NCBI GenBank assembly: GCA_965229705.1
Contig: OZ245922.1
Location: 390,001-422,000, forward strand
DNA: 32,000 bases
DNA from: Candidatus Saccharimonadota bacterium
GTDB taxonomy: Bacteria > Patescibacteriota > Gracilibacteria > BD1-5 > UBA6164
Reading direction: 5' to 3'
Positions 4,101-31,800 of this stretch are shown piece by piece. A model generated the notes under the pieces. It saw nothing but the letters and a program-made list of their open reading frames with translations. It made no database searches and was not told where the DNA came from. The position numbers were made by a program, and so were the translations under genes. How positions within the stretch are numbered: the stretch's first letter is position 1; each line of letters starts with the position of its first letter.

Positions 4101-5032
4101 TTATCTTCGAGAGAAAGATCAAGGGCATCAACTCCTTGAAATTCATGATCATCTCAAAGAAATCTTGCGCTTCAAGTAGCAAGTTCCATAAGAGTGTTTC
4201 ACGGTTTTCCATGTTGGGTGCTTTTTTCTTGAAATGTTTTATGAGCTTGTATCAGGCTCTGTTGAGTTGCTGACTTATTTTCACATAAGTGTACGTCGTT
4301 CATCTGTGTAAAAAAAGTACTATGACGGCAATGATCAGACCAGTAAGTATCTATGAGAAGTATTTCTGCTTTTGTTGGATCACGCTGTTCTTCCTTGAGG
4401 AAATACCCATGAACAAGTCGTATATCATCTACACTCAGAGAGAGCTCATGATCTTGTATACATTTCTGAAAACCTGCATCATCAGAAATATCTCTAAAAC
4501 CTGTTAAGAGTATATGATTTTCGGGTTCTTGAAGTGATCTTTCAAGTCTTATATCACTCAGTGAAGATTCTTGTTTTTCATTTGGGTTAATAAGAAAGCC
4601 TGTGATTTTTTTTCGTTCATCTCTTGAGAGATCTCTTGAGAATTGTATCACTTGCTTCACACGAACATGATGGTCTTTCCCTGTTTGAAGTGTGAGATTG
4701 TCTTTTACAGCTTGCAGGCGAGCATCAAATTGCCCTGCTTGAGACTCAATTACGACAGTGTTTTCTCTTGAACCTTTTTCTATATCTTCACGAGAAAGTA
4801 GTATATCAACTGGCGCTTCTGAAAAAACGGTACTCTTTGCAAGGCTTAGTTCATCATCGCTGAGATCAGAAACAATATAATGTTCATATACATGTATTTC
4901 TCAAAGATTTTTGAGACCAAGATTTCATTCAAGGCTTGTTTGTAAATGTTTTCAGAGATCAACAATATGTTGACGCTTTTGTACAAAAATTTCAGATATT
5001 TCTCAAGCTTGTGTAGAAGAGGAATTGAGCAT
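1190..5032 (-). CDS. purL: phosphoribosylformylglycinamidine synthase, single-chain large form (about 1280 aa)
   Basis: Track ORFs 1796-2137, 2252-2647, 3671-3919 and 4199-4660 share one minus frame. The gaps between them contain only TGA, no TAA/TAG. ATG is at 5032 and TAG at 1190-1192. Motifs seen: YWSDHCRHSTFFT, KVAAIGGKDSMSG, and a C-terminal amidotransferase region with GGFSNGDEPDGS (first G is TGA at 1796-1798), GICNGFQAL, SHGEG and MPHPER. Confidence 0.95.
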
Positions 5033-5121: not shown

Positions 5122-5301
5122 TTGTGTTAAAAAGATGTGAAAATATAGGGAAGCACGGAAAAATAGGAAATGTGTAAAAACAAGTAGTTCAAGGAAAATG
5201 CAACTTGGCTGAAATAAGCGTACTCATTGTACGAGTTTGAAGACAATGTTGCACTTTGACGATGAAATACGAAGTTTTTCCGCATTTCCATAGCAAGAAA
5301 A

Positions 5302-7194
<1,893 letters not shown>

Positions 7195-7332: not shown

Positions 7333-7445
7333 TTAAGGAAGCTCTAAAAAAGACATTTTTGTTTTCTCGAGACCGGTCTCGAGTTACTTATTTCAAGGAC
7401 TTGAGACCGGTCTCTTATAAAAGATTTATCTCTTTTTAAGAAATA
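7333..7445 (+). repeat. family-A palindromic element, copy A1 (right arm degenerate)
   Basis: TTAAGGAAGCTCTAAAAAAG...TTTTCTCGAGACCGGTCTCGAGTTACTTATTTCAAGGACTTGAGACCGGTCTCTTA... The core is identical to copy A2 and reverse-complementary to A3 and A4. It is intergenic, between the 319-aa orphan stop and the ftsH start. Confidence 0.9.
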
Positions 7446-7506: not shown

Positions 7507-8466
7507 TTACGTCTTTGTTGAAGATTGCTTATTATCATCTATCTCACTTTCCTCTCAAGCTTGTAAGAGAGGTTGTTCTCGCATAAACAAGCTCGCATAA
7601 TTTTCTCTATTATTTTGCATTTTTTCGCTCATTTCTCTTCCAAAGTCCTTATATTTTTTCAAAAGATCAAGATATCAGAAATCTTTTATTACTTTTGGTA
7701 TTTCTGTATCTCAAGGAAAAAATAGTTGAGCATATATGAAAAAAATCATTTTCATTCTTATCGGAAGTTCTCAGTCGTCTATGATATTTTCTATAGCATA
7801 CCAGCTCTTTTCTGGAAGATACACAGATCACATACGATACTTCTCGAGAATCACTTGGGGAACTGCTACTCAATTTGCTATAAGCTCTGTACAAAGAAAC
7901 TTTCAAGCGTTTATATGACTTAAAGCGTTCATATTTCACCTAAAATCTTCCAGAAGTCTTTCTCAGATTTCAAATGAATCAACTTTTGATAACCAAGAAG
8001 TGATGTTTACCTCCGTAACATGATCTTTGAGTTTATGTTGTTCTATGAACTTATAAACTTGTTCAAGTGTTTTTCACTCTGTCATAGCAAAAATTACTGA
8101 GGAATCTGCATTATAACCAGAAAAAAACTCTTCAAATACACTATCACGATCTTCTTGGGTTTCTAGAAAATTGAGAATCCTTGTAAGTGTTGGGATAGAA
8201 AGTGTAATATTTTTTCTTCTTGCTTCAAGAATTATTGCCTCTATATCTATATCATGCAGATCTCTGTCAAATTTTGTAAAAATATAATAGTCTGATTCCA
8301 CCACATTTCTTACTTCTGCACAAATCTGTCGTATTTTATGATCTTTATGTCATTCTTTTCATTGTAAAATCGAAGAAATCTCAGCTTTTGTCGCTCACAA
8401 AAGCTCTTTAGGAATGGGAAGTCATAAATCCTCTGCACGGTCTATGTAAGATAATCTTCAATTCAT
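7507..8466 (-). CDS. hypothetical protein (319 aa), no recognisable family
   Basis: Walked codon by codon on the minus strand. ATG at 8466 is preceded by an in-frame TAA, and TAA is at 7507-7509. It contains many in-frame TGA codons. Sequence MNGRLSYIDRAEDLGLPIPKELLGATKAE...FAMTEGKTLEQVYKFIEQHK...NKQSSTKT. Track ORF 8074-8304 is an internal fragment. Confidence 0.7.
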
Positions 8467-8508: not shown

Positions 8509-8630
8509 TTAAGAAGGCTCTGAAAAAAGGCATTTTTATTTTCTCGAGACCGGTCTCGAGTTACTTATTTCAAGGACTTGAGACCGGTCTCTTACACAGG
8601 ATTTTTCTATTTCTCAGAACTTCCTTTAGG
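8509..8630 (+). repeat. family-A palindromic element, copy A2 (complete)
   Basis: TTAAGAAGGCTCTGAAAAAAGG...TTCTCGAGACCGGTCTCGAGTTACTTATTTCAAGGACTTGAGACCGGTCTCTTACACAGGATTTTTCTATTTCTCAGAACTTCCTTTAGG. The outer arms are inverted repeats of each other. It is intergenic between divergent genes. Confidence 0.9.
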
Positions 8631-8686
8631 AAACTCTGAGAATAATTATACACAAAAAAGACATATATCAAGTAAAAAATAAATAA

Positions 8687-10402
8687 ATGCAACACCTCAA
8701 GATACATATAGAAAAACTTGAACTCTCTTGAGAACTTATTCTCAAAGATATTGCACTCACTATCAATAAGAATGATACTATTTCTATAGTATGACCAAAT
8801 GGTTCTGGAAAAACGACTTTTCTCAAAACATTGATTTGAGATATTGTAGAGTATCATGGTTATATAGAAAATGTCTGAAATATGAAGCTCTGATACCTTC
8901 AGCAAGTGTATGGGGATAACGAGGGAAAAACTGTTCATGAAGAGCTCAGAGATGCTTTTACAGAAATACTCACACTTGAGAAAAGAGTAAAAGAACTAGA
9001 AGAAGAAATATGAGAAAATCATAGTCTCATAGCTGAATATACTGAACTGCTAGAAAGATGTAATAATATTTGAGGATATGATTATGAACATACTATCCAC
9101 TCAGTAAGTCAGTGAATATGAATACTTCATCTATTAGAAAAAAAACTCAGCGAAATATCATGATGACAACGAGCAAAGGTTGCTCTGGCAAAAGTTCTTT
9201 TGGAATCTCCTGATATGCTCTTTCTTGATGAACCTACAAATTTTGTTGATATGGCAAGTGTTCAGTGGCTTGAGTGATACCTCAAACATAAATGGAAATG
9301 ATGATATGTTATTGTGTCTCATGATAGAGAATTTCTTGATACAACCTGCCAAAAAACTCTTGAAATCCAACCACAAAGATCAGCAACTATGTATCACACA
9401 AATTATAGTGAGTATGTTATCGAAAGAGAAAAAAGAGAAAAAAAGAAACTCGATGAATATGAAAGACAAGAAGAGTATATTTGAAAACAAAACCAGCTTA
9501 TCAATCGTTTTCGAGCATGATCGAGAGCAGGTTGGGCAAAAAGTCGAGAGAAAATGATAGAAAAAATGGATAAGCTTGAAAAACCCTTTATCCCAAAAAA
9601 AACAAAATTTTTCTTTGATTATTTATGAGAATCACCAGAAAAACTACTAACATATAAAGAGGCTTTTATTGGAAGAAAAAAAGCATCTCCCCTTTTTTTT
9701 ATTCAAGAGATTATCCTGCATAAATGAATGCGCGTCTGAGTTGTATGAGAAAATGGTGTTGGAAAATCAACATTTATCAAAACTATTCTTGGTCATATTC
9801 CCCTACTTGATGGATATCAGTCATTGTGAAAATCTACCAAGATTGTATACTATTCACAAATGCATGAGGAACTCAAGACACATCTTTCTATGCGAGATAA
9901 TTTTCATCAGCATGGCATATGTCTCCCCGATGAACACTTGACAGCTCTGATAAAACATTATCTTTTTGAAAAAGAAGACCTAGATAAAAAAGTCTGTGAA
10001 CTTTCATGAGGACAAAAAAGTAAGTTCTTGTTTTGTATTCTAGGTCAAAAACCGGCAAATCTCTTGGTACTTGATGAACCAACAAATCATCTTGACTACG
10101 ATACGCGGGAATCTCTCGAGTATGCTTTGAGTCAATATGAGTGAAGTATCCTCTTCATTTCTCATGACAGGTATTTTGTGAATAAGCTTGCCAGTCATAT
10201 TTGGTTTATAGACAATGCTGAACTCTCGCTTTCATATGGAAACTATGAAGACTATCGTTTTAAAAAAGAACATCGTCTTGATATGGATATGCATATTTTT
10301 GATGAGCAAGCAGAACTCAATCTTGTACTTGAAGAAAAGCTCTGAGAAAAAGAATTTAAGCGTCTCAAAGAAAAGTTTGGGAAGAAAAAGAAGAGAAAGT
10401 AA
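8687..10402 (+). CDS. ABC-F family ATPase (two ABC domains, no TM; translation-factor/ribosome-associated type), 571 aa
   Basis: The frame is open from ATG 8687 (an in-frame TAA lies immediately upstream) to TAA 10400-10402, checked line by line. Two Walker A motifs are present ([18 protein letters not shown]). Two ABC signatures are present: LSGGQRAK with GG encoded by TGA TGA at 9161-9166, and LSGGQKSK with TGA at 10007-10009. A charged linker and a K-rich tail complete the protein. Confidence 0.93.
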
Positions 10403-10743: not shown

Positions 10744-10801
10744 CCCTCTGCTCATAAAAAATGCGTGTTTTATATGCAAAATGATGAAATACTTCAAAAA
10801 A

Positions 10802-10877
10802 GGATTCATAGCTCAGTTGGTAGAGCACTCGCCTCTTAAGCGATAGGTCCCGAGTTCGAGCCTCGGTGAATCCACCA
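10802..10877 (+). tRNA. tRNA-Lys (anticodon CTT), CCA encoded
   Basis: Cloverleaf read by hand: acceptor GGATTCA/TGAATCC, D arm GCTC-AGTTGGTA-GAGC, anticodon loop CTCTTAA, T arm CCGAG-TTCGAGC-CTCGG, then A + CCA. Confidence 0.92.
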
Positions 10878-13160: not shown

Positions 13161-13187
13161 CAAAAAAATTTCTTCTTGTTCTAAGAT

Positions 13188-13294
13188 TTAAGGAAGCTCT
13201 GAAAAACAAAAATTTTCTAATCCTCTCTGGCTCTATCGAGCTATCTCTCCTTTGGAAAAGGAGAGAAAAAAGGAGTTTCTCAAAGTTTCCTTAA
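13188..13294 (+). repeat. family-B palindromic element, copy B1
   Basis: TTAAGGAAGCTCTGAAAAACAAAAATTTTCTAATCCTCTCTGGCTCTATCGAGCTATCTCTCCTTTGGAAAAGGAGAGAAAAAAGGAGTTTCTCAAAGTTTCCTTAA. The termini match family A. The core matches copy B2. Confidence 0.88.
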
Positions 13295-14049: not shown

Positions 14050-14171
14050 TTCTTTCAGAAGCCTCTGAGAAATAGAAAATCTTGTGTAAGATACCGGTCT
14101 CAAGCCCTTGAAATAAGTAACTCAAGACCGGTCTCGAGAAAACAAAAAGGACTTTCTCAGAGCTTGTGAAC
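14050..14171 (-). repeat. family-A palindromic element, copy A3 (inverted orientation)
   Basis: ...CTCTGAGAAATAGAAAATCTTGTGTAAGATACCGGTCTCAAGCCCTTGAAATAAGTAACTCAAGACCGGTCTCGAGAAAACAAAAAGGACTTTCTCAGAGCTT... is the reverse complement of the A2 layout. It is intergenic between trmB and mscS. Confidence 0.9.
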
Positions 14172-16383: not shown

Positions 16384-16412
16384 GTTTGTATAGTTATTGT
16401 GTATTTGCTTAA

Positions 16413-16609
16413 ATTCCTATCTTGAATTCTTTTCTCGCTCCCTTCCTTTTTTGCTAAAAGGAAGGGGTGGGGATGGAATAAGTGTATCAATTCCTATCTT
16501 GAATTCTTTCCTTTGCTCTCAAAGGAAAGAGGCTGCAGGCTTTCTATCAAGTTTTGAGCCCTCCTCCTTTTTTGTTAAAAGGAGGAGATTCAGAGGTGGA
16601 ATAAGTAAG
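16413..16609 (-). repeat. family-C multi-hairpin element, short unit plus long unit, inverted orientation
   Basis: 16489-16609 is the reverse complement of the long unit at 27667-27793 and 28591-28717 (about 95 percent identical by eye). 16413-16488 is the reverse complement of the short unit type. It fills the gap between the 476-aa gene start and the ligA stop. Confidence 0.9.
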
Positions 16610-16624
16610 ATGTCTGTGTATTTC

Positions 16625-18703
<2,079 letters not shown>

Positions 18704-22448: not shown

Positions 22449-24389
22449 ATGAATATTACCAAAATCCTGCTTTGCGTTCTATTTTTCATACTTCCTTTTA
22501 TCCATGGGAAAATATTTTTTCAGTTTTGAATACCTCTATATTTTCCTGTAGACGGAAACTATGAGTTCACGAAGAGTATTTTTTTTCATATTTTCTCAAG
22601 CCTGATATATATAGTGTTTATTTGAGAATCTCTTCTCAATTCTTTTTTTTGTAAAAGCAAAGAACATACAAAATATTTTTCGCAAATTTTTTCTATACAG
22701 GCAATTGGCTGAAAAAGTAATACACCTCATTTTCAAGTATGAAAAATTATCTCTATATTTCTGATAATCCTCTCAATATCAACCTATTTCTCTCTCTCCC
22801 CTTTCATCTCACTCATCTGAGACACAGAAAAATGACATACAACGCTTCTCTTTGTTCATCTTGTATGAATATTTCTCATACTACGAAGTCTTGAGAAAGA
22901 GTTCTTGCAAAGACTCATATATATCACGATTTTTTCATGTTGTATTGTCAGTGTCATTGCGATAAAAGAATTATTTTTTCCTGTTTTCGATTATGGGGAG
23001 CTGTCAAGTAGGGCACTATGAACTCTTGGACACCCAAACTATCTTGCTGGATATATATTGATAATCCTTCCTCTTGTGTTTCATGCAAAACTCCCCTCTC
23101 TTATAAAAGGGGGGCTTGGGACTGTGTTAATATGAACTATCATACTTACGCAGTCTATTGTCGCGGTATTTCTCACTTTTTGCTATTTCGCGTATTTTTT
23201 TATGGCTCATATTTTTAGAAGAGGTTCCTTAAGAAAGTTCTGAAAAATAAAAAAATCTTGAGTAAGAGACTGGTCTCAAGCCCTTAAAATAAGTAACTCG
23301 AGACCGGTCTCAAAAAATAAAAGCGCTTTTTCCAGAGATTTTTTAAAGCGTTGGTGGACTCAAATATGAATATATATTCTTATCATACTTACTTTGTGTC
23401 TTTGTCTCTTACTCATACAATATTTTCCAGAAAAACTCCACTCATTTCTTTCACGTTTTAGTATTTGGGAGACAACTCTCAGGATTATTTTCTCAGATAT
23501 ACACATATTATTTTTCTGAGCAGGTCTTGAGACACTTCCCTACTTTTTTGAAAGTTTCAAGAGTCCTGAGATGTATATTTATGAAAATTTTTGATACACT
23601 GCCGATAGACCTCACAATTTCTTGCTCAATATTTTGTATCATTTAGGGATTCTTTGAGGAGTTTTTTTCTGATATTTGTTCTACCTCTTTTGCAAAAACT
23701 ACAAAAACACTCCAGAAAATCATGCGATGATACTCTTTTTATTATTCTGAATATTTCATTTTTTTTCAGTAGTAAGTTATATCGTTTTTATACTCATACT
23801 GAGTTACTCCTTACTCTCACTAAAAACCTTACCTCTCAATCTCCACTCCTCAAAAGAGAAGAGGGATGTAAATCATATTTTATGAATATGTGTATTCACA
23901 ATAATTACTGTCTTATCTTTTTTTTGATCATATTCTTCTTTTCTCCTCTATAGAGCAGAAATTCTTTATGAACAACAAAAATATCATCTAGCTCAAAAAA
24001 CTTTTTCTCATCCAAAATATCTCATAGAAATATGAAAATACCAACAAGCCGAACAAAGAGAATGAATCCTCTCTCAGTATAACCTCAAAAATCAGCTGAT
24101 AACCAAAGAAGATAAAGTCTCTTTATGTAAATATCTCACTCGTGCGTATCCTGCAGCGGAAAATTACTTATATTGTGGAAATATTCTTGAACGTATCGGG
24201 GAAAAAAATCTTTCTCTTGAGTATTATAGGCTATGACTCTTGGAACTTCCTGATCTTTGGAATCAAGATTCTCGATATTGGAAAAACTATTTTATACGAG
24301 AAACTATAAGCGGAAATAGGTTTTTTTCGGAAAAATTTTGAGATATTTGATGAGTTGTAGAAAAAGTATATAATCACAAAAATTACTAA
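22449..24389 (+). CDS. O-antigen-ligase/Wzy_C-like polytopic membrane protein with a C-terminal TPR-like region (646 aa), carrying an in-frame family-A element
   Basis: ATG 22449 to TAA 24387-24389. All 647 codons were read and there is no TAA/TAG. The N-terminal half has LGTLGHPNYLAGYILIILPLVF. The C-terminal half has FFGAGLETLPYF...ADRPHNFLLNILYHLGILGGVFF (Wzy_C-type signature). The two halves are in one frame across repeat copy A4. Confidence 0.8.
23223..23348 (-). repeat. family-A palindromic element, copy A4, located inside a CDS
   Basis: GGTTCCTTAAGAAAGTTCTGAAAAATAAAAAAATCTTGAGTAAGAGACTGGTCTCAAGCCCTTAAAATAAGTAACTCGAGACCGGTCTCAAAAAATAAAAGCGCTTTTTCCAGAGATTTTTTAAAG is collinear with A3. 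In the host frame it translates as RRGSLRKFGKIKKSGVRDWSQALKISNSRPVSKNKSAFSRDFLK. Confidence 0.9.
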
Positions 24390-24399
24390 TCTCATTTTT

Positions 24400-24813
24400 A
24401 TGTATAACTGGTCCATTATTTCTCAAATACTCAAAGAGGTTGAAAAAAAAGATATACTCAATACGCAAAGAATAAAAGATTCTGACAATGCTGATGTCTT
24501 TAGAAAATATATAAAATCAGATATATTCTTTGATGAAATTTCCAGTGAAATACAAGAAGTAAAAGATGAAAATAAAAAAAACAACTCTGTATATCTTGAG
24601 GATGAGCTCTGAGATATTTTTTGGGATTATATCAATCTCTTATACTTTTTGGAAAAAGAGAATAAAATATCTCTTGAAAGAGTATTTGAAAGGTGTTTAA
24701 GAAAATATAGTGATCGTATTTCTGCTTTAGAAAATTGAGTATTGTGGGAAGATATAAAAAAGCAGCAAAAAGAATCTCTCGCGAAAGAACATAAACAAAA
24801 ATATGAACTTTAA
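24400..24813 (+). CDS. MazG-like nucleotide pyrophosphohydrolase (137 aa), tentative family call
   Basis: ATG 24400 to TAA 24811-24813 with two in-frame TGA codons. The acidic helix pattern DEISSEIQEV...LEDELGDIFWDYINLLYFLEKENKISLERVFERCLRKYSDRI resembles the small MazG/YpjD fold (ExxE...ELGD). Confidence 0.6.
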
Positions 24814-24914
24814 AAAACTTCTGAAAAATACAAACTCCCTAATCCTCTCTGGCTCTACCAAACCATCCCTCCTTTGTAAAACGAGAGAAAAAGGACTTTC
24901 TCAGAGTTTCCTTT
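24810..24914 (+). repeat. family-B palindromic element, copy B2
   Basis: TTTAAAAAACTTCTGAAAAATACAAACTCCCTAATCCTCTCTGGCTCTACCAAACCATCCCTCCTTTGTAAAACGAGAGAAAAAGGACTTTCTCAGAGTTTCCTTTT is collinear with B1. Its left terminus overlaps the MazG-like stop codon. Confidence 0.88.
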
Positions 24915-27207: not shown

Positions 27208-27564
27208 ATGAAACACTTTTTGATACTTTGTATAGTTTTGCTTATTATTTCATCTTGTTCTTCTGATATACAAGAAAAAGAAAATTGAGATAAAGATACT
27301 CCTAGCTTTGATATTCTAAAGAAACCTATTTTAGAAAAAAATACCTTGAGGCAAGATGATGTATATCAATCTTTTATATGAATGACGAAGCAAGAAGCAG
27401 TAGAGTATGCTCAAGAAAACAATATAAAATTTCGTATTGGAAAAGAAGATAATAAGGCTTATATGCTCACGATGGATTATGTTGTTTGAAGAGCAACGGC
27501 AACTCTTAAAGATGGAAGAGTCATAGGTCTGAATATTGAATGAAGAAAAAGTATCCTTGAATAA
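27208..27564 (+). CDS. small lipoprotein (118 aa); the mature domain loosely resembles the peptidase-inhibitor I78 fold family
   Basis: ATG 27208 to TAA 27562-27564. The signal peptide MKHFLILCIVLLIISSC carries a lipobox. The segment FRIGKEDNKAYMLTMDYVVGRATATLKDGRVIGLNIEG fits the pattern; this family guess is tentative. Confidence 0.72.
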
Positions 27565-27819
27565 AAATACAAAAATATTTTACTTATTTCACCTCTGAAT
27601 CTCCTCCTTTTAACAAAAAAGGAAGGGAGCGAGAAAGGAATTCAAGATAGGAATGGAGAAAACATATTACTTATTCCACCTCTGAATCTCCTCCTTTTAA
27701 CAAAAAAGGAGGAGGGCTCAAAACTTGATAGAAAGTCTGTAGCTTCTTTCCTTTGAGACCAAAGGAAAGAATTCAAGATAGGAATTGAGAAAATATTTGT
27801 CCGAAATGACAGAAAACTA
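27563..27819 (+). repeat. family-C element: short unit (27579-27654) plus long unit (27667-27793) plus a shared 26-nt flank, ending 5 nt before tRNA-Ser
   Basis: The long unit is TTACTTATTCCACCTCTGAATCTCCTCCTTTTAACAAAAAAGGAGGAGGGCTCAAAACTTGATAGAAAGTCTGTAGCTTCTTTCCTTTGAGACCAAAGGAAAGAATTCAAGATAGGAATTGAGAAAA. It has two perfect hairpins (CTCCTCCTTTT/AAAAGGAGGAG and CTTTCCTTTG/CAAAGGAAAG). Confidence 0.9.
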
Positions 27820-27824
27820 CTTCT

Positions 27825-27917
27825 GGAAGGGTGGCTCGAGTGGTTGAAGGCGCGCGCTTGGAAAGCGTGTAAGTTGGATTTCCGGCTTCGCGGGTTCGAA
27901 TCCCGTCCCTTCCTCCA
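27825..27917 (+). tRNA. tRNA-Ser (anticodon GGA), long variable arm, CCA encoded
   Basis: Acceptor GGAAGGG/CCCTTCC, anticodon stem CGCGC/GCGTG with loop TTGGAAA, long variable arm, T arm with GGTTCGAATCC, then T + CCA. Confidence 0.9.
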
Positions 27918-27979: not shown

Positions 27980-28043
27980 ACTCTTCCTTTTAGCAAAAAA
28001 GGAAGGGAGAAATGAAGCAATTCAAGATAGGAATTGAGAAAAC
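27980..28043 (+). repeat. family-C element, truncated short unit
   Basis: CTCTTCCTTTTAGCAAAAAAGGAAGGGAGAAATGAAGCAATTCAAGATAGGAATTGAGAAAAC. It shares the hairpin and the GAATTCAAGATAGGAAT terminus of family C. Confidence 0.8.
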
Positions 28044-28098
28044 TAAATGATTTTCTGTTAAAACTCTAAGAGTTAGTATAATCCAAAAGAGAAACCAC

Positions 28099-28503
28099 AT
28101 GAAAAAGCTTATTCGCATTTCCAGACTTGCCTCAAAAGAGGCTATCAAAGATTTAAAAGCAAAAAATCCTCTTTATTGTAGTGCAATAAAAGAAGATTTC
28201 ACCGTAACTAATATTTTTTATTCTCATATTATTGGGTACAAAAAATCTCGCCCAGATAGAGAAGTAGTAGAAAGACTTATCGTCATGAATCTTATACAAA
28301 AAATTGCCCAAGAATGAGTATTAAAAGAAAAACGGAAAAATGGAGCTTTTGAATGAGCAATATACCAAAATACCTATAAAATTATGCTAAAAAAATGATG
28401 AATTTGTTTCTATGTTATTATTTGAGAGGAAAAATCTGGAAAATATATTTTGCTAAGCTGCTTTGTAAAAGACTATCGAAAAAATAAAGACTCATTCGTT
28501 TAG
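28099..28503 (+). CDS. hypothetical protein (134 aa)
   Basis: ATG 28099 to TAG 28501-28503 with five in-frame TGA codons. Sequence MKKLIRISRLASKEAIKDLKAKNPLY...IAQEGVLKEKRKNGAFEGAIYQNTYKIMLKKGGICFYVIIGEEKSGKYILLSCFVKDYRKNKDSFV. No family is recognised. A possible TATAAT lies at 28077-28082. Confidence 0.62.
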
Positions 28504-28573: not shown

Positions 28574-28743
28574 AAAAATACAAAAATATTTTACTTATTC
28601 CACCTCTGAATCTCCTCCTTTTAACAAAAAAGGAGGAGGGCTCAAAACTTAATAGAAAGTCTGTAGCCTCTTTCCTTTGAGATCAAAGGAAAGAATTCAA
28701 GATAGGAATTGAAAAAACATTTGTCCGAAATGACAGGAAACTA
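28574..28743 (+). repeat. family-C element, long unit plus the same 26-nt flank that precedes tRNA-Ser
   Basis: 28591-28743 differs from 27667-27819 at 6 of 153 positions (my count). The 5-prime leader AAAAATACAAAAATATTT matches the leader of the short unit at 27563. Confidence 0.92.
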
Positions 28744-28838: not shown

Positions 28839-31800
28839 ATGTCACTACCTAAAGTAAACCCAAAACAAAGCTTCCCAGAACTTGAAGAAAATATACTCCA
28901 GTTTTGGAAAGAAAATGATATTTTTCAAAAATCTATTGATAATAGACCCGAAGATAGACCATATAGATTTTATGATGGCCCTCCATTTATTACCGGAACT
29001 CCACACTATGGAAGTCTTCTCTCAAGTATCATCAAGGATATCATACCACGCTATCAAACCATGCAAGGAAAACGCGTTGAGAGAAAATGGTGATGGGACT
29101 GTCACGGACTCCCTATCGAAGAAAAAGTGCAAAAAAAACTTGGACTCGAATCAAATAAAGAAATAGAAGAAACTGTAGGAATCAAAAAATTTATCGAAGA
29201 ATGTTATAACTATACAAGAGAAACTTCTGCAGAATGGCAGTGGTATATCGATCATATCGGTAGATGGGTAGATACAGACAATGCCTACAAAACTATGGAT
29301 CAAGACTACATGGAGTCTGTTATGTGGGTATTTCAACAACTCTGGAAAAAGTGAATGATTTATAAAGGGCAACGCGTATCTCTCTACTCATGGAAACTCT
29401 CAACTCCTATCTCAAACTTTGAAGTTGCAATGGATGATAGCTACGAAGAAGTATCTGATCCAGCTATCACTGTGATGTTTCCCCTAACCTCATCCCAACA
29501 TTCCCCTCAGGGAGAATCAGTAAGCAAGAGTAACTCAGAAAATGTAGCCTCTCTCTGAGAGGAGAGAGAATTCAAGAATGAGATTTCTGGTGGAAAACAC
29601 GTTCAAGAGTGAGATTATCTCTTAGCGTGGACAACAACACCCTGGACGATTCCAGCTCATATGGCTATCGCTGTGAATCCTGAGCTTGCCTACTCTCGAG
29701 TCTTCTCAGAAAACATATACTACATTCTCGCAACTGCTCGAGTAGAAACATTATTTAAAGGAAAAGAGTATGAAATCACAGAGAGTTTTATGTGATCAGA
29801 CCTCATCTGACTCTCGTATGATGCTCCTTTCAAATACTATCAAGGAAAAGTTGACTCAGAGAAAAATCATCGAGTCTTAGCAGCAGACTTTGTGACTGAT
29901 AGTGATGGGACTGGTATTGCTCACGAGGCTCCAGAGTTTGGTGATGTAGATTTTCAGCTTGCCAAAGAAAAGTGAGTCCATATCTCAAACGCTCTTGATA
30001 ATGCTGGAAAATATACAGAAGAAATCTCTGACTACGAATGAATGCACTACAGAGAAGCAAATGATGTGATCACAGAAAAACTCAAAGAACTATGAAGACT
30101 CTTCAAAAAAGAGTCTATCAATCACCGAGTCGCAATGTGTCCTCGTAGTGGTACTCCCCTCATTTATAAAGCGCAAGACTCATGGTTTATCAATATTCAA
30201 GATCTCAAAGATAAGCTCATCGACGAAAACGAAGGAATTAACTGGCAGCCAGGGCATCTCAAACATGGACAATTCCTAAAGTCTATGGAAAGTGCTCCTG
30301 ACTGGTGTATCTCTCGAACACGATATTGGGGAACTCCTATGCCAATATGGGTAGGTCGAGATAGTGACGGAAAAGATCAGGATATAAAGGTTTTTTGAAG
30401 CAAACAAGAAATAGAGTCAGCATCATGAATGAAAATTACAGATCTCCACAGACCATATATTGACGATATCACTTGGGAGGAAAATGGACTCACATATACA
30501 AGACTCCCCGAAGTCCTTGATGTATGGATGGATAGTGGCTCGATGCCATACGCGCAAATGCATTACCCATTTGAAAATAGTACTGAGATGGAAGCCAGCT
30601 ACCCTGCTGATTTTATCGTTGAGTATATCGGACAAGTCAGAGCCTGGTTTTATGTCATGCATGTTGTCGGAACAGCGCTCTTTGATAAACGAAGTTTTAC
30701 CAATGTTATTACAACAGGAATCGTCAACGGATCTGATGGAAGAAAAATGAGTAAATCATACGGAAACTATCCAGATCCTCGAAAAACTATTGAGACATAT
30801 GGCGCAGATGCTATCAGATTTTATATGGCAAACTCTCCCCTACTTACAGGTGGGAATATGGATTTTAAAGAAGAATGAATCCTCGAAGTTGTGAAGAAAT
30901 TGATCCTCCCACTCTGGAATACCTATTCATTTTTTACGACTTATGCAAATATAGATTGATTTGAACCTATGAACTCTCAAAAAATTAAAGTTCAAGGAAA
31001 CTGAGATTTTTCTGAGAAGAGCATACTTAATAGTAGGAGTTCGAAGAAAATATCTCAAAGTGACGATGAAATTTGAACTTGTTCAAAGCTTCAAAGAAGT
31101 AATCCTCTCGATATCTGGATTATCTCAGAAGTACATAGTCTTACTCAGCAGGTTACAAAAGCAATGGAACACTATGAAGTTACCGAGGCTACTCGTCCAA
31201 TTGTACAATTTATGGATCACCTCACTAACTGGTATATACGTCGAAGTAGGAAGCGTTTTTGGAAAAGTGAAAATGATCAAGATAAAATGCAAGCCTACGA
31301 AACGCTCTATGAAGTACTCATAGAACTATGTAAAATTATGGCACCTTTTACCCCATTTATTACCGAAGAAATATATAAGAATCTTACAGGGAACCTGTCT
31401 GTGCATTTAGAAGATTTTCCTACGAGTAATAGCTCACTCATAGATACTGATCTCAATGCAAACATGAGTCTCTGCCAAAAAATTATTAGTCTTGGTCTTT
31501 CTCTCAGAACAACTCAAAAAATCAGAGTAAGGCAACCTCTTCAAAGTATTTCTATCTGAGAAACGCTTTCTGACTACTACAAAGATATTATTAAAGAAGA
31601 ACTCAATGTGAAAGAAGTCCTCCAAGGAGATAGTAGTTCTATCGCAAAAAAAATATGTAAACCAAATGGTCGACTCATTGGACCAAAATTTGGAAAAGAT
31701 GTAAAAAATATTATTTCACAAGCAAAAGCTGGAAATTTTACAGAAATAGATCAAAATACAATCCTAATTCTCCCTCTTGATAAAGAACAGAAGGGGTGGG

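Follow-up and report, generated by a model that had tools for sequence, protein, structure and literature searches.

Can a gene for a membrane protein carry a copy of a dispersed palindromic repeat among its codons and still work as one gene? This question is raised by a locus in a 32,000-nt stretch of DNA (the window; positions 390,001 to 422,000 of contig OZ245922.1, assembly GCA_965229705.1) from a Candidatus Saccharimonadota bacterium placed by GTDB in the Gracilibacteria. On the + strand of the window, an open reading frame (ORF) at 22449..24389 encodes a polytopic membrane protein of 646 aa that, as judged from translation, Pfam and alignment, combines a Wzy_C (O-antigen ligase-like) domain with a TPR-like domain at the C-terminus. 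One of four copies of a repeat that we call family A lies inside this ORF (copy A4, 23220..23346, + strand). The initial annotation of the locus had proposed an in-frame insertion of the kind described for Rickettsia palindromic elements (RPEs). Our analysis leads us to the reading, with a probability of roughly 85%, that an element resembling a miniature inverted-repeat transposable element (MITE) was inserted into a permissive loop of an intact Wzy_C-like gene and is read through in-frame.

We analyzed the genetic code of the window by comparing its ORFs with TGA as stop and as sense codon. When TGA was read as stop, the window yielded 47 ORFs that reached 100 aa or more, with a maximum of 234 aa. 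When it was read as sense, the longest ORF reached 1380 aa and a normal bacterial gene map was obtained, comprising purL-like, ftsH, ABC-F, ligA, ELP3-like radical-SAM, Wzy_C-like, mazG-like, threonine dehydratase and ileS genes. Universally conserved glycines of FtsH are encoded by TGA (e.g. LRPgRFDR and HEVgHA), from which it follows that code 25, as the initial annotation had assumed, and not code 4 is in use. In eight confident window genes 43% of the Gly codons are TGA, and the host gene alone has 25 in-frame TGA codons that are read as Gly. The best homologues of the host protein found in a protein search carry the name Candidatus Gracilibacteria.

Translation of 22449-24389 gives a single ORF in which one frame holds LGTLGHPNYLAGY upstream of A4 as well as GAGLETLPYF and RPHNFLLNILYHLGILGG downstream of it, in agreement with what had been proposed from the codons. 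Orthologues beginning with M-x-(L/I)-T-K-I-L-L confirm the start of the 646-aa ORF. The protein search yielded 112 homologues, mostly of 555-600 aa, one of which is named O-antigen ligase family protein by NCBI, and precomputed PF04932 matches are present in several orthologues. For the alignment we used the window protein and 32 full-length orthologues with 38-51% identity. All 32 align end to end across the element, so the locus holds one gene and not two, and all 52 family-invariant residues, located on both sides of the element, are kept in the window protein. The segment encoded by A4 is missing from 32/32 of the aligned orthologues, which at the protein level answers the search for an empty site that had been suggested as a check. 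Between invariant S236 and invariant P327 the window protein has 90 aa, compared to a median of 46.5 aa (range 41-79) in the orthologues, and this loop excess of 43-44 residues agrees with the 42 codons of the element. The gene order DHH, radical-SAM, host gene is kept on the closest long contig, which carries orthologue P0014, and we therefore regard P0014 and the host gene as true orthologues. With an intact ORF, 52 invariant residues and orthologues that do not have the segment, the comparison to RPE-like in-frame insertion holds in functional terms.

To locate the insertion in the protein we used a confident AlphaFold2 model of the closest orthologue (pLDDT 87.3, pTM 0.90). On this model the insertion falls in a turn of 4 residues that joins helices 240-255 and 260-284, one transmembrane helix ahead of the PEKLHSF...GxGxET...ADRPHN loop that bears the Wzy_C signature. 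The native protein scores 21.1 bits with Pfam PF04932 (Wzy_C), under the gathering score of 31.7. When residues 257-300 were deleted in silico, the score was 33.0 bits with one contiguous match over profile positions 6-148, so that Wzy_C family membership at the gathering score is reached with the insert removed. The element encodes approximately aa 258-300 (RGSLRKFGKIKKSGVRDWSQALKISNSRPVSKNKSAFSRDFLK), and the 44-aa insert peptide (aa 257-300) contains 14 K/R and 2 D/E, which fits the earlier description of about 42 added basic residues and the peptide quoted there. Considering this strongly basic composition and the positive-inside rule, the loop would face the cytoplasm. A Foldseek comparison of the orthologue model with the PDB gave no hit at E <= 1e-3 and only weak TPR matches to the C-terminal domain. 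As no solved O-antigen ligase or polymerase was matched, we keep the label 'Wzy_C-like' for the host, based on Pfam.

The repeat itself was characterized by BLAST within the window. A4 matches three intergenic copies: A1 (7333..7442, - strand), flanked by the 7507-8466(-) gene's stop and the ftsH(-) start, with 80% identity over 110 nt (E 7e-21); A2 (8509..8637, - strand), the most complete copy, between the divergent starts at 8466(-) and 8687(+), with 85% over 129 nt (E 7e-34); and A3 (14050..14165, + strand) between the TrmB-like stop (14023) and the probable start (14190) of an MscS-like gene with Pfam MscS domains, with 80% over 117 nt (E 6e-22). The intergenic copies are 87-90% identical among themselves, more complete and closer to each other than to A4. 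The initial annotation had located the element correctly in the ORF, and its bounds of 23223-23348 become ~23220-23346 by BLAST. It had also called the family otherwise intergenic, a statement that applies to A1-A3 in the window and does not carry beyond those three copies. A search for the exact family-A core pattern in public genomes and metagenomes gave no match and hence no sister genome or empty site, and a profile of the element-encoded peptide run against 5.8 billion proteins found nothing (best E = 4.8) and thus no further genic family-A copies.

From the four-copy alignment we derived a layout of terminal inverted repeats (TIRs), followed by A-rich arms and a central hairpin of two palindromic 12-mers separated by a 22-nt loop. 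In A4, the left TIR lies at 23229..23248 (TTAAGAAAGTTCTGAAAAAT; family consensus TTAAGGAAGYTCTGAGAAA), as seen from the alignment and the reverse complement of A2, and the right TIR at 23327..23346 (TTTTTCCAGAGATTTTTTAA). The TIRs TTAAGGAAGYTCTGAGAAA ... TTTYTCAGAGCTTCCTTAA are found in A2 and the consensus and are degraded in A4, A1 and A3. The first 12-mer (23266..23277, GAGACTGGTCTC, 1 mismatch) reads R-D-W-S, the loop spans 23278..23299 (AAGCCCTTAAAATAAGTAACTC), and the second 12-mer (23300..23311, GAGACCGGTCTC) reads R-P-V-S and is predicted to form a 12-bp stem together with the first. RNA folding of 23200-23350 gave -36.3 kcal/mol (z = -3.2). Allowing up to 2 mismatches, the 12-mer GAGACCGGTCTC occurs 8 times in the window, always inside the four copies, compared to 0.61 matches expected from shuffles. 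Furthermore, 93 of its 96 positions are conserved in the window versus 80-90% for whole copies. Being small (~125 nt), multicopy, TIR-bounded and without transposase coding capacity, family A resembles a MITE in these respects. Two other identities were considered and rejected: Rfam, searched at the gathering threshold and at E <= 1, gave no family at its cutoff and only far-sub-threshold hairpin matches, which excludes a known RNA family, and a terminator scan of the sense strand found nothing terminator-like within the element, which excludes a terminator inside the gene.

Two further properties of the element are mentioned here as observations. Where the context is unambiguous, that is for A1 (-), A3 (+) and A4 (+), the copies are co-oriented with local transcription and would give an RNA hairpin followed by an A-rich, not U-rich, tract; in the reverse orientation a copy might work as a terminator and be selected against. 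The 12-mer GAGACCGGTCTC is composed of two inverted GGTCTC half-sites around ACCGGT, which we take to be the recognition sequences of BsaI/Eco31I-type and AgeI-type enzymes, respectively. A tie of the 12-mer to restriction-modification or another sequence-specific protein is pure speculation.

Next, we analyzed how the element can be read. The host phase is the only forward frame that is open through A4, and the other two end in TAA (EEVP* and VSSP*), just as the initial annotation had described for the forward strand; one reverse frame, which it did not mention, is open as well. In the host phase, with the 12-mers read as R-D-R/W-S and R-P-V-S, the central ~30 codons contain no stop in any of the four copies. 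In each of the remaining forward phases, stops recur at the same places in every copy. The element thus has one intrinsically coding-compatible forward phase, and A4 is inserted in that phase. Stops near the ends of A1 and A2 in the host phase are absent from A4. Two TGA codons occur in the host phase of A4, at aa 265 and 271, so that the A4 frame is open only if code 25 applies; with the standard code, the protein would stop within the element. When the 126 nt of A4 were shuffled by mononucleotide, an open 42-codon frame arose in 6.4% of the cases under code 25 and in 2.6% under code 11, so that a shuffled element is 2.5 times more often open under code 25.

A4 is not the only repeat found in-frame in the window. 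A second one, of a different family, lies inside the isoleucyl-tRNA synthetase (IleRS) gene at 30989..31084 (+ strand, aa 717-749) and shares 73% identity with 5186-5280 over 96 nt (E 8e-8). It coincides with an extra 37-residue segment of IleRS (aa 718-754): in the alignment with PDB IleRS 8c8v, the structure passes from 670 to 672 and the query from 717 to 755. Over the wider segment 30975-31100 the host frame is the only stop-free one. The other copy (5186..5280, + strand, found by BLAST) is located near the point where the purL-like gene(-) starts, immediately downstream of the ftsH(-) stop, and is probably intergenic if purL starts at an internal Met. The loop that contains A4 is also occupied by repeats in two orthologues. 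In orthologue P0014 (670 aa) three segments are repeated elsewhere on its 18-kb contig and one of them lies in the loop of A4, and orthologue P0024 has repeat DNA in the same loop; in both cases other hairpin repeats are involved. These in-frame segments are located at 10199-10241, 10746-10818 and 11382-11479 of contig L071 and at 975-1015 of L072, two of them in the loop in question, which looks like a recurrent landing or tolerance site.

Several repeats nearby should be described as well. An intergenic element at 13187..13292 (+ strand, with a partner at 24809-24913; BLAST and TIR alignment) belongs to a further family with the family-A TIR (TTAAGGAAGCTCTGA...TCAAAGTTTCCTTAA) and a different hairpin core. 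The shared termini suggest that one transposition machinery may serve several MITE-like families. A second extra segment of IleRS (aa 217-256, ~29487-29606) adds ~40 residues compared to PDB IleRS structures and includes a CCTCTCTCTGAGAGGAGAGAG hairpin; its match to repeats of a family B is weak (76% over 41 nt, E = 0.04). The family-B repeats are found at 16412-16628, 27563-27819, 27981-28043 and 28574-28743, extend up to 161 nt and are 94-96% identical. They flank a tRNA (27825-27914) and a 163-aa ORF without Pfam match (28012-28503), and two of the copies form direct repeats 924 nt apart around this ORF. In the orthologue alignment, columns ~330-345 and ~500-520 contain the shared loop motifs SPLRRGLGW and PKGEG(L/F), which look like translated GC-rich mini-hairpins and may be remnants of further repeat insertions.

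We then scanned public genomes and metagenomes for the hairpin core, defined as two exact GAGACCGGTCTC 12-mers 15-30 nt apart. Matches were obtained in five contigs of one Gracilibacteria metagenome-assembled genome (MAG), two other uncultured MAGs and 50 metagenome stretches. In 6 of the first 7 of these a module of 42-44 nt is contained in a long ORF whose frame it preserves, and the hosts include an aminoacyl-tRNA synthetase (aaRS) with KMSKS motif, a methyltransferase, IMDH and IspE. PDB homologues are gapped exactly at the module, by 14 residues in IMDH (6xxy), 15 in IspE (2v2q) and 16 in SufC. The SufC case comes from a recoded contig, and a DnaE-like ORF is also found among the hosts. 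Of the 20 modules on contigs with clear TGA recoding (GC 0.21-0.35, the majority from two JGI samples), 12 are found in ORFs that extend open for 50 residues or more to either side (contigs L036, L044, L045, L048, L051, L057, L062, L063 and L070). All 12 are stop-free in the host frame and 11 share one phase (xRPVS...ETGL), with gene-specific flanks. Their loop measures 22 nt in 10 of the 12, as in the window element, compared to 23 or 25 nt in the 8 intergenic modules, whose loops are stop-rich (contigs L023, L025, L028, L034, L052, L059 and L067). Genic 22-nt and intergenic 23/25-nt modules may represent two size classes within a single family. Since the scans demanded exact 12-mers, ascertainment accounts in part for the seemingly perfect conservation of the 12-mer among genomes; the window, with its 93 of 96 conserved positions, was not chosen in that way. 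The hairpin core also occurs in-frame on contigs of GC 0.42, whose ORFs contain 0-1 TGA, and we conclude that code 25 helps and is not required. The expectation that code 25 eases in-frame tolerance is partly borne out: it is supported by the two TGA codons of A4 and the 2.5-fold difference in shuffles, and the same core in ORFs with 0-1 TGA speaks against code 25 as a precondition.

On contig L048 (12.8 kb) we observed three 46-nt modules (2189-2234, 4781-4826 and 5744-5789) in one DnaE-like ORF of ~1400 aa. Twin-12-mer matches in high-GC sequences (Nonomuraea, Amycolatopsis and Agathobaculum-like gut contigs) were set aside as probably unrelated. Higher-GC unrelated contigs, for example one of a Paracoccaceae MAG, contain 12-mer arrays with ~21-36 nt spacing inside ORFs (L001 3250-3360, L064 1278-1569 and L027 367-464), which are probably a different phenomenon.

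How could such a copy have come to lie in a working gene? In the sequence of events that we propose, a non-autonomous, TIR-bounded element of ~125 nt would have transposed into the codons of the short inter-helix loop. The copy would survive because it sits in the only forward phase without TAA or TAG, because its net length is divisible by three, which leaves the downstream catalytic part in frame, and because its two in-phase TGA codons would be read as glycine; selection would keep only copies in the stop-free phase with a length that is a multiple of three. The gene would be transcribed and translated straight through, and the loop would gain ~42 strongly basic residues. By the positive-inside rule these would remain in the cytoplasm, with the membrane topology and the conserved Wzy_C loop untouched; the insert would presumably be neutral.

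Several points weigh against this account. A4 is the most diverged of the copies (80-85%). We found no DNA-level empty site, the nearest orthologue being only 51% identical, and the insertion is deduced from a protein alignment in a loop whose length varies from 41 to 79 aa between the markers. The ends of the four copies carry TTAA or TAAA, which may belong to the TIR or be a target-site duplication. Pfam detected no transposase domain in the hypothetical proteins of the window, the only place where one was sought. As Foldseek matched no solved membrane protein, the proposed topology is based on Pfam and general rules.

These points have to be weighed together with other explanations of the locus. 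The host could be a pseudogene, or on the way to becoming one, with its function broken by the insertion and its frame open by chance. The intact protein does fall under the Pfam cutoff, and chance openness is frequent: besides the 6.4% of code-25 shuffles, 41% of all 126-nt stretches of the window are open, so that an open frame taken alone is weak evidence. A broken gene, however, would not be expected to keep 346 downstream residues in phase and 52/52 invariant residues on both sides, nor would the copy be expected in a short inter-helix turn of the orthologue model. Two orthologues independently carry in-frame repeats in the same loop, and in-frame copies occur in the essential genes for IleRS, SufC, IMDH and a DnaE-like protein, and we consider decay of the gene unlikely. 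Translation of the element could instead be avoided, either by cutting it from the mRNA in an intron-like manner at the 12-bp stem or by ribosomal bypass. Such a route would make sense of the strong conserved stem, of 12-mers that are conserved across genomes of 21% to 44% GC while the loops diverge, and of module lengths of 42-49 nt, which are not multiples of three. On this view neither stops nor phase would be under selection. All 12 genic modules on recoded contigs, however, are stop-free, 11 share one phase and 10 have the 22-nt loop, A4 lies in its only open forward phase, and the proteins are longer by an integral number of residues that matches the element. Since phase, stops and loop-length class are constrained, we regard removal from the mRNA or bypass by the ribosome as very improbable.

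The direction of events could also be reversed, the loop being an old, lineage-specific part of the protein and the intergenic copies pieces of its gene that became scattered. The variable loop length among orthologues and the divergence of A4 would agree with this, but the segment occurs in 0/32 orthologues, and the element has TIRs of its own that are common to another intergenic family. Other genomes have its hairpin core between genes as well as in genes that are unrelated, and the intergenic copies of the window, besides being more complete, are 87-90% alike and farther from A4; we give this direction hardly any weight. Finally, a repeat could have been collapsed or spliced into the gene during metagenome assembly, which is worth asking because repeats are frequent in the window and the source is probably a metagenome assembly. 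Against such an artefact, the two flanks are parts of one gene, share its phase and occupy adjacent alignment positions, A4 has substitutions and indels of its own and does not duplicate any other copy in the window, and the same pattern recurs in independent NCBI, ENA and JGI assemblies. We find this explanation scarcely credible.

The proposed in-frame insertion of a MITE-like element into a putatively permissive loop can be compared to several known systems. The closest parallel in behaviour are the RPEs (Ogata et al. 2000, 2002), as far as they are summarised in the review PMC10969869. They too are dispersed palindromic repeats of ~100-150 nt with an intrinsically open phase, occur both intergenically and in-frame in intact, unrelated genes, add a peptide where the fold allows and form several families per genome. 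RPEs belong to Alphaproteobacteria, in contrast to the code-25, Gracilibacteria-type member from the candidate phyla radiation (CPR) studied here. Unlike them, the present element has a TIR shell around a twin 12-mer hairpin, exists in other genomes in a minimal 46-nt form (~16 residues) and depends on TGA = Gly for its open phase. Since the host phylum differs and the likeness that we compared is one of behaviour, we do not file the element as a member of an RPE family. Intragenic bacterial MITEs are covered by the same review for enterobacterial repetitive intergenic consensus (ERIC) and other enterobacterial elements (Delihas 2007), QMITE1 of Coxiella and the MITEs of Anabaena, within the limits of its summary. 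They share with family A that they are small, non-autonomous, TIR-bounded and multicopy, with occasional in-frame ORF fusions. Intragenic copies are exceptional in ERIC, QMITE1 and the Anabaena MITEs, whereas here two families are in-frame within 32 kb and 12/20 core copies on recoded contigs are genic.

A third comparison concerns the doublets of palindromes that form hairpins, like family A, with the palindrome more conserved than the spacer. Repetitive extragenic palindromic (REP) sequences and the mobile REP doublets (REPINs) are short palindrome doublets that form a hairpin, are mobilised by REP-associated tyrosine transposases (RAYTs) and are extragenic by definition, each REP being an imperfect palindrome in inverted pairs. 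In the element that we describe, every single 12-mer forms a perfect palindrome and there are copies within genes; as A4 and many core copies are genic, identity with REP/REPIN was rejected on the criterion of extragenic location. Palindromic repeats with coding potential were reportedly found in Methanocaldococcus jannaschii by Suyama and colleagues in 2000; these are archaeal and unrelated in sequence, and we take them as a lead only. The 'hypervariable repeat' of Sieber et al. 2019 is a PTD tandem array and unrelated. In the full-text literature we found no description of in-frame MITE or palindromic insertions for Gracilibacteria or Absconditabacteria, in line with the initial annotation, which was aware of no precedent in a code-25 lineage.

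The recurrence of the core in other genomes allows a broader and more tentative idea, to which we assign somewhat less than an even chance: the twin GAGACCGGTCTC hairpin could be a sequence-specific mobile module that is spread through the lineage of Gracilibacteria-type CPR and is active now or was so recently. It would exist in a protein-compatible form with a 22-nt loop, one phase and ~16 residues in essential genes (SufC, DnaE-like, IMDH, IspE and aaRS) and in a stop-rich intergenic form with a loop of 23-25 nt, and its core would have been captured in a TIR-bounded MITE shell in the window genome. If this is true, it would be the second large protein-coding palindrome system after that of Rickettsia and the first in CPR, and the exact conservation of the 12-mer would point to a protein that recognises it.

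The example in the window is solid, and the apparent wider pattern of twin palindromes in essential genes across a CPR class is the more interesting lead. The persistence of selfish palindromic DNA in-frame in working genes is treated, where review PMC10969869 takes it up, as a peculiarity of Rickettsia with scattered cases elsewhere. If such insertions are common in recoded CPR with reduced genomes, several consequences follow. A4 gives a concrete consequence of stop-codon reassignment, being readable only because TGA is a sense codon. Such inserts also affect annotation, as hidden Markov model scores fall under family cutoffs (21 versus 33 bits) and proteins seem longer than their family, and they are ready presence/absence markers for tracing strains and lineages in metagenomes. 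The 12-mer, conserved across very different GC contents, could be used to track down the enzyme by which it is moved or recognised. In addition, such insertions would provide a second independent system for studying how proteins tolerate insertions and perhaps how they gain new loops.

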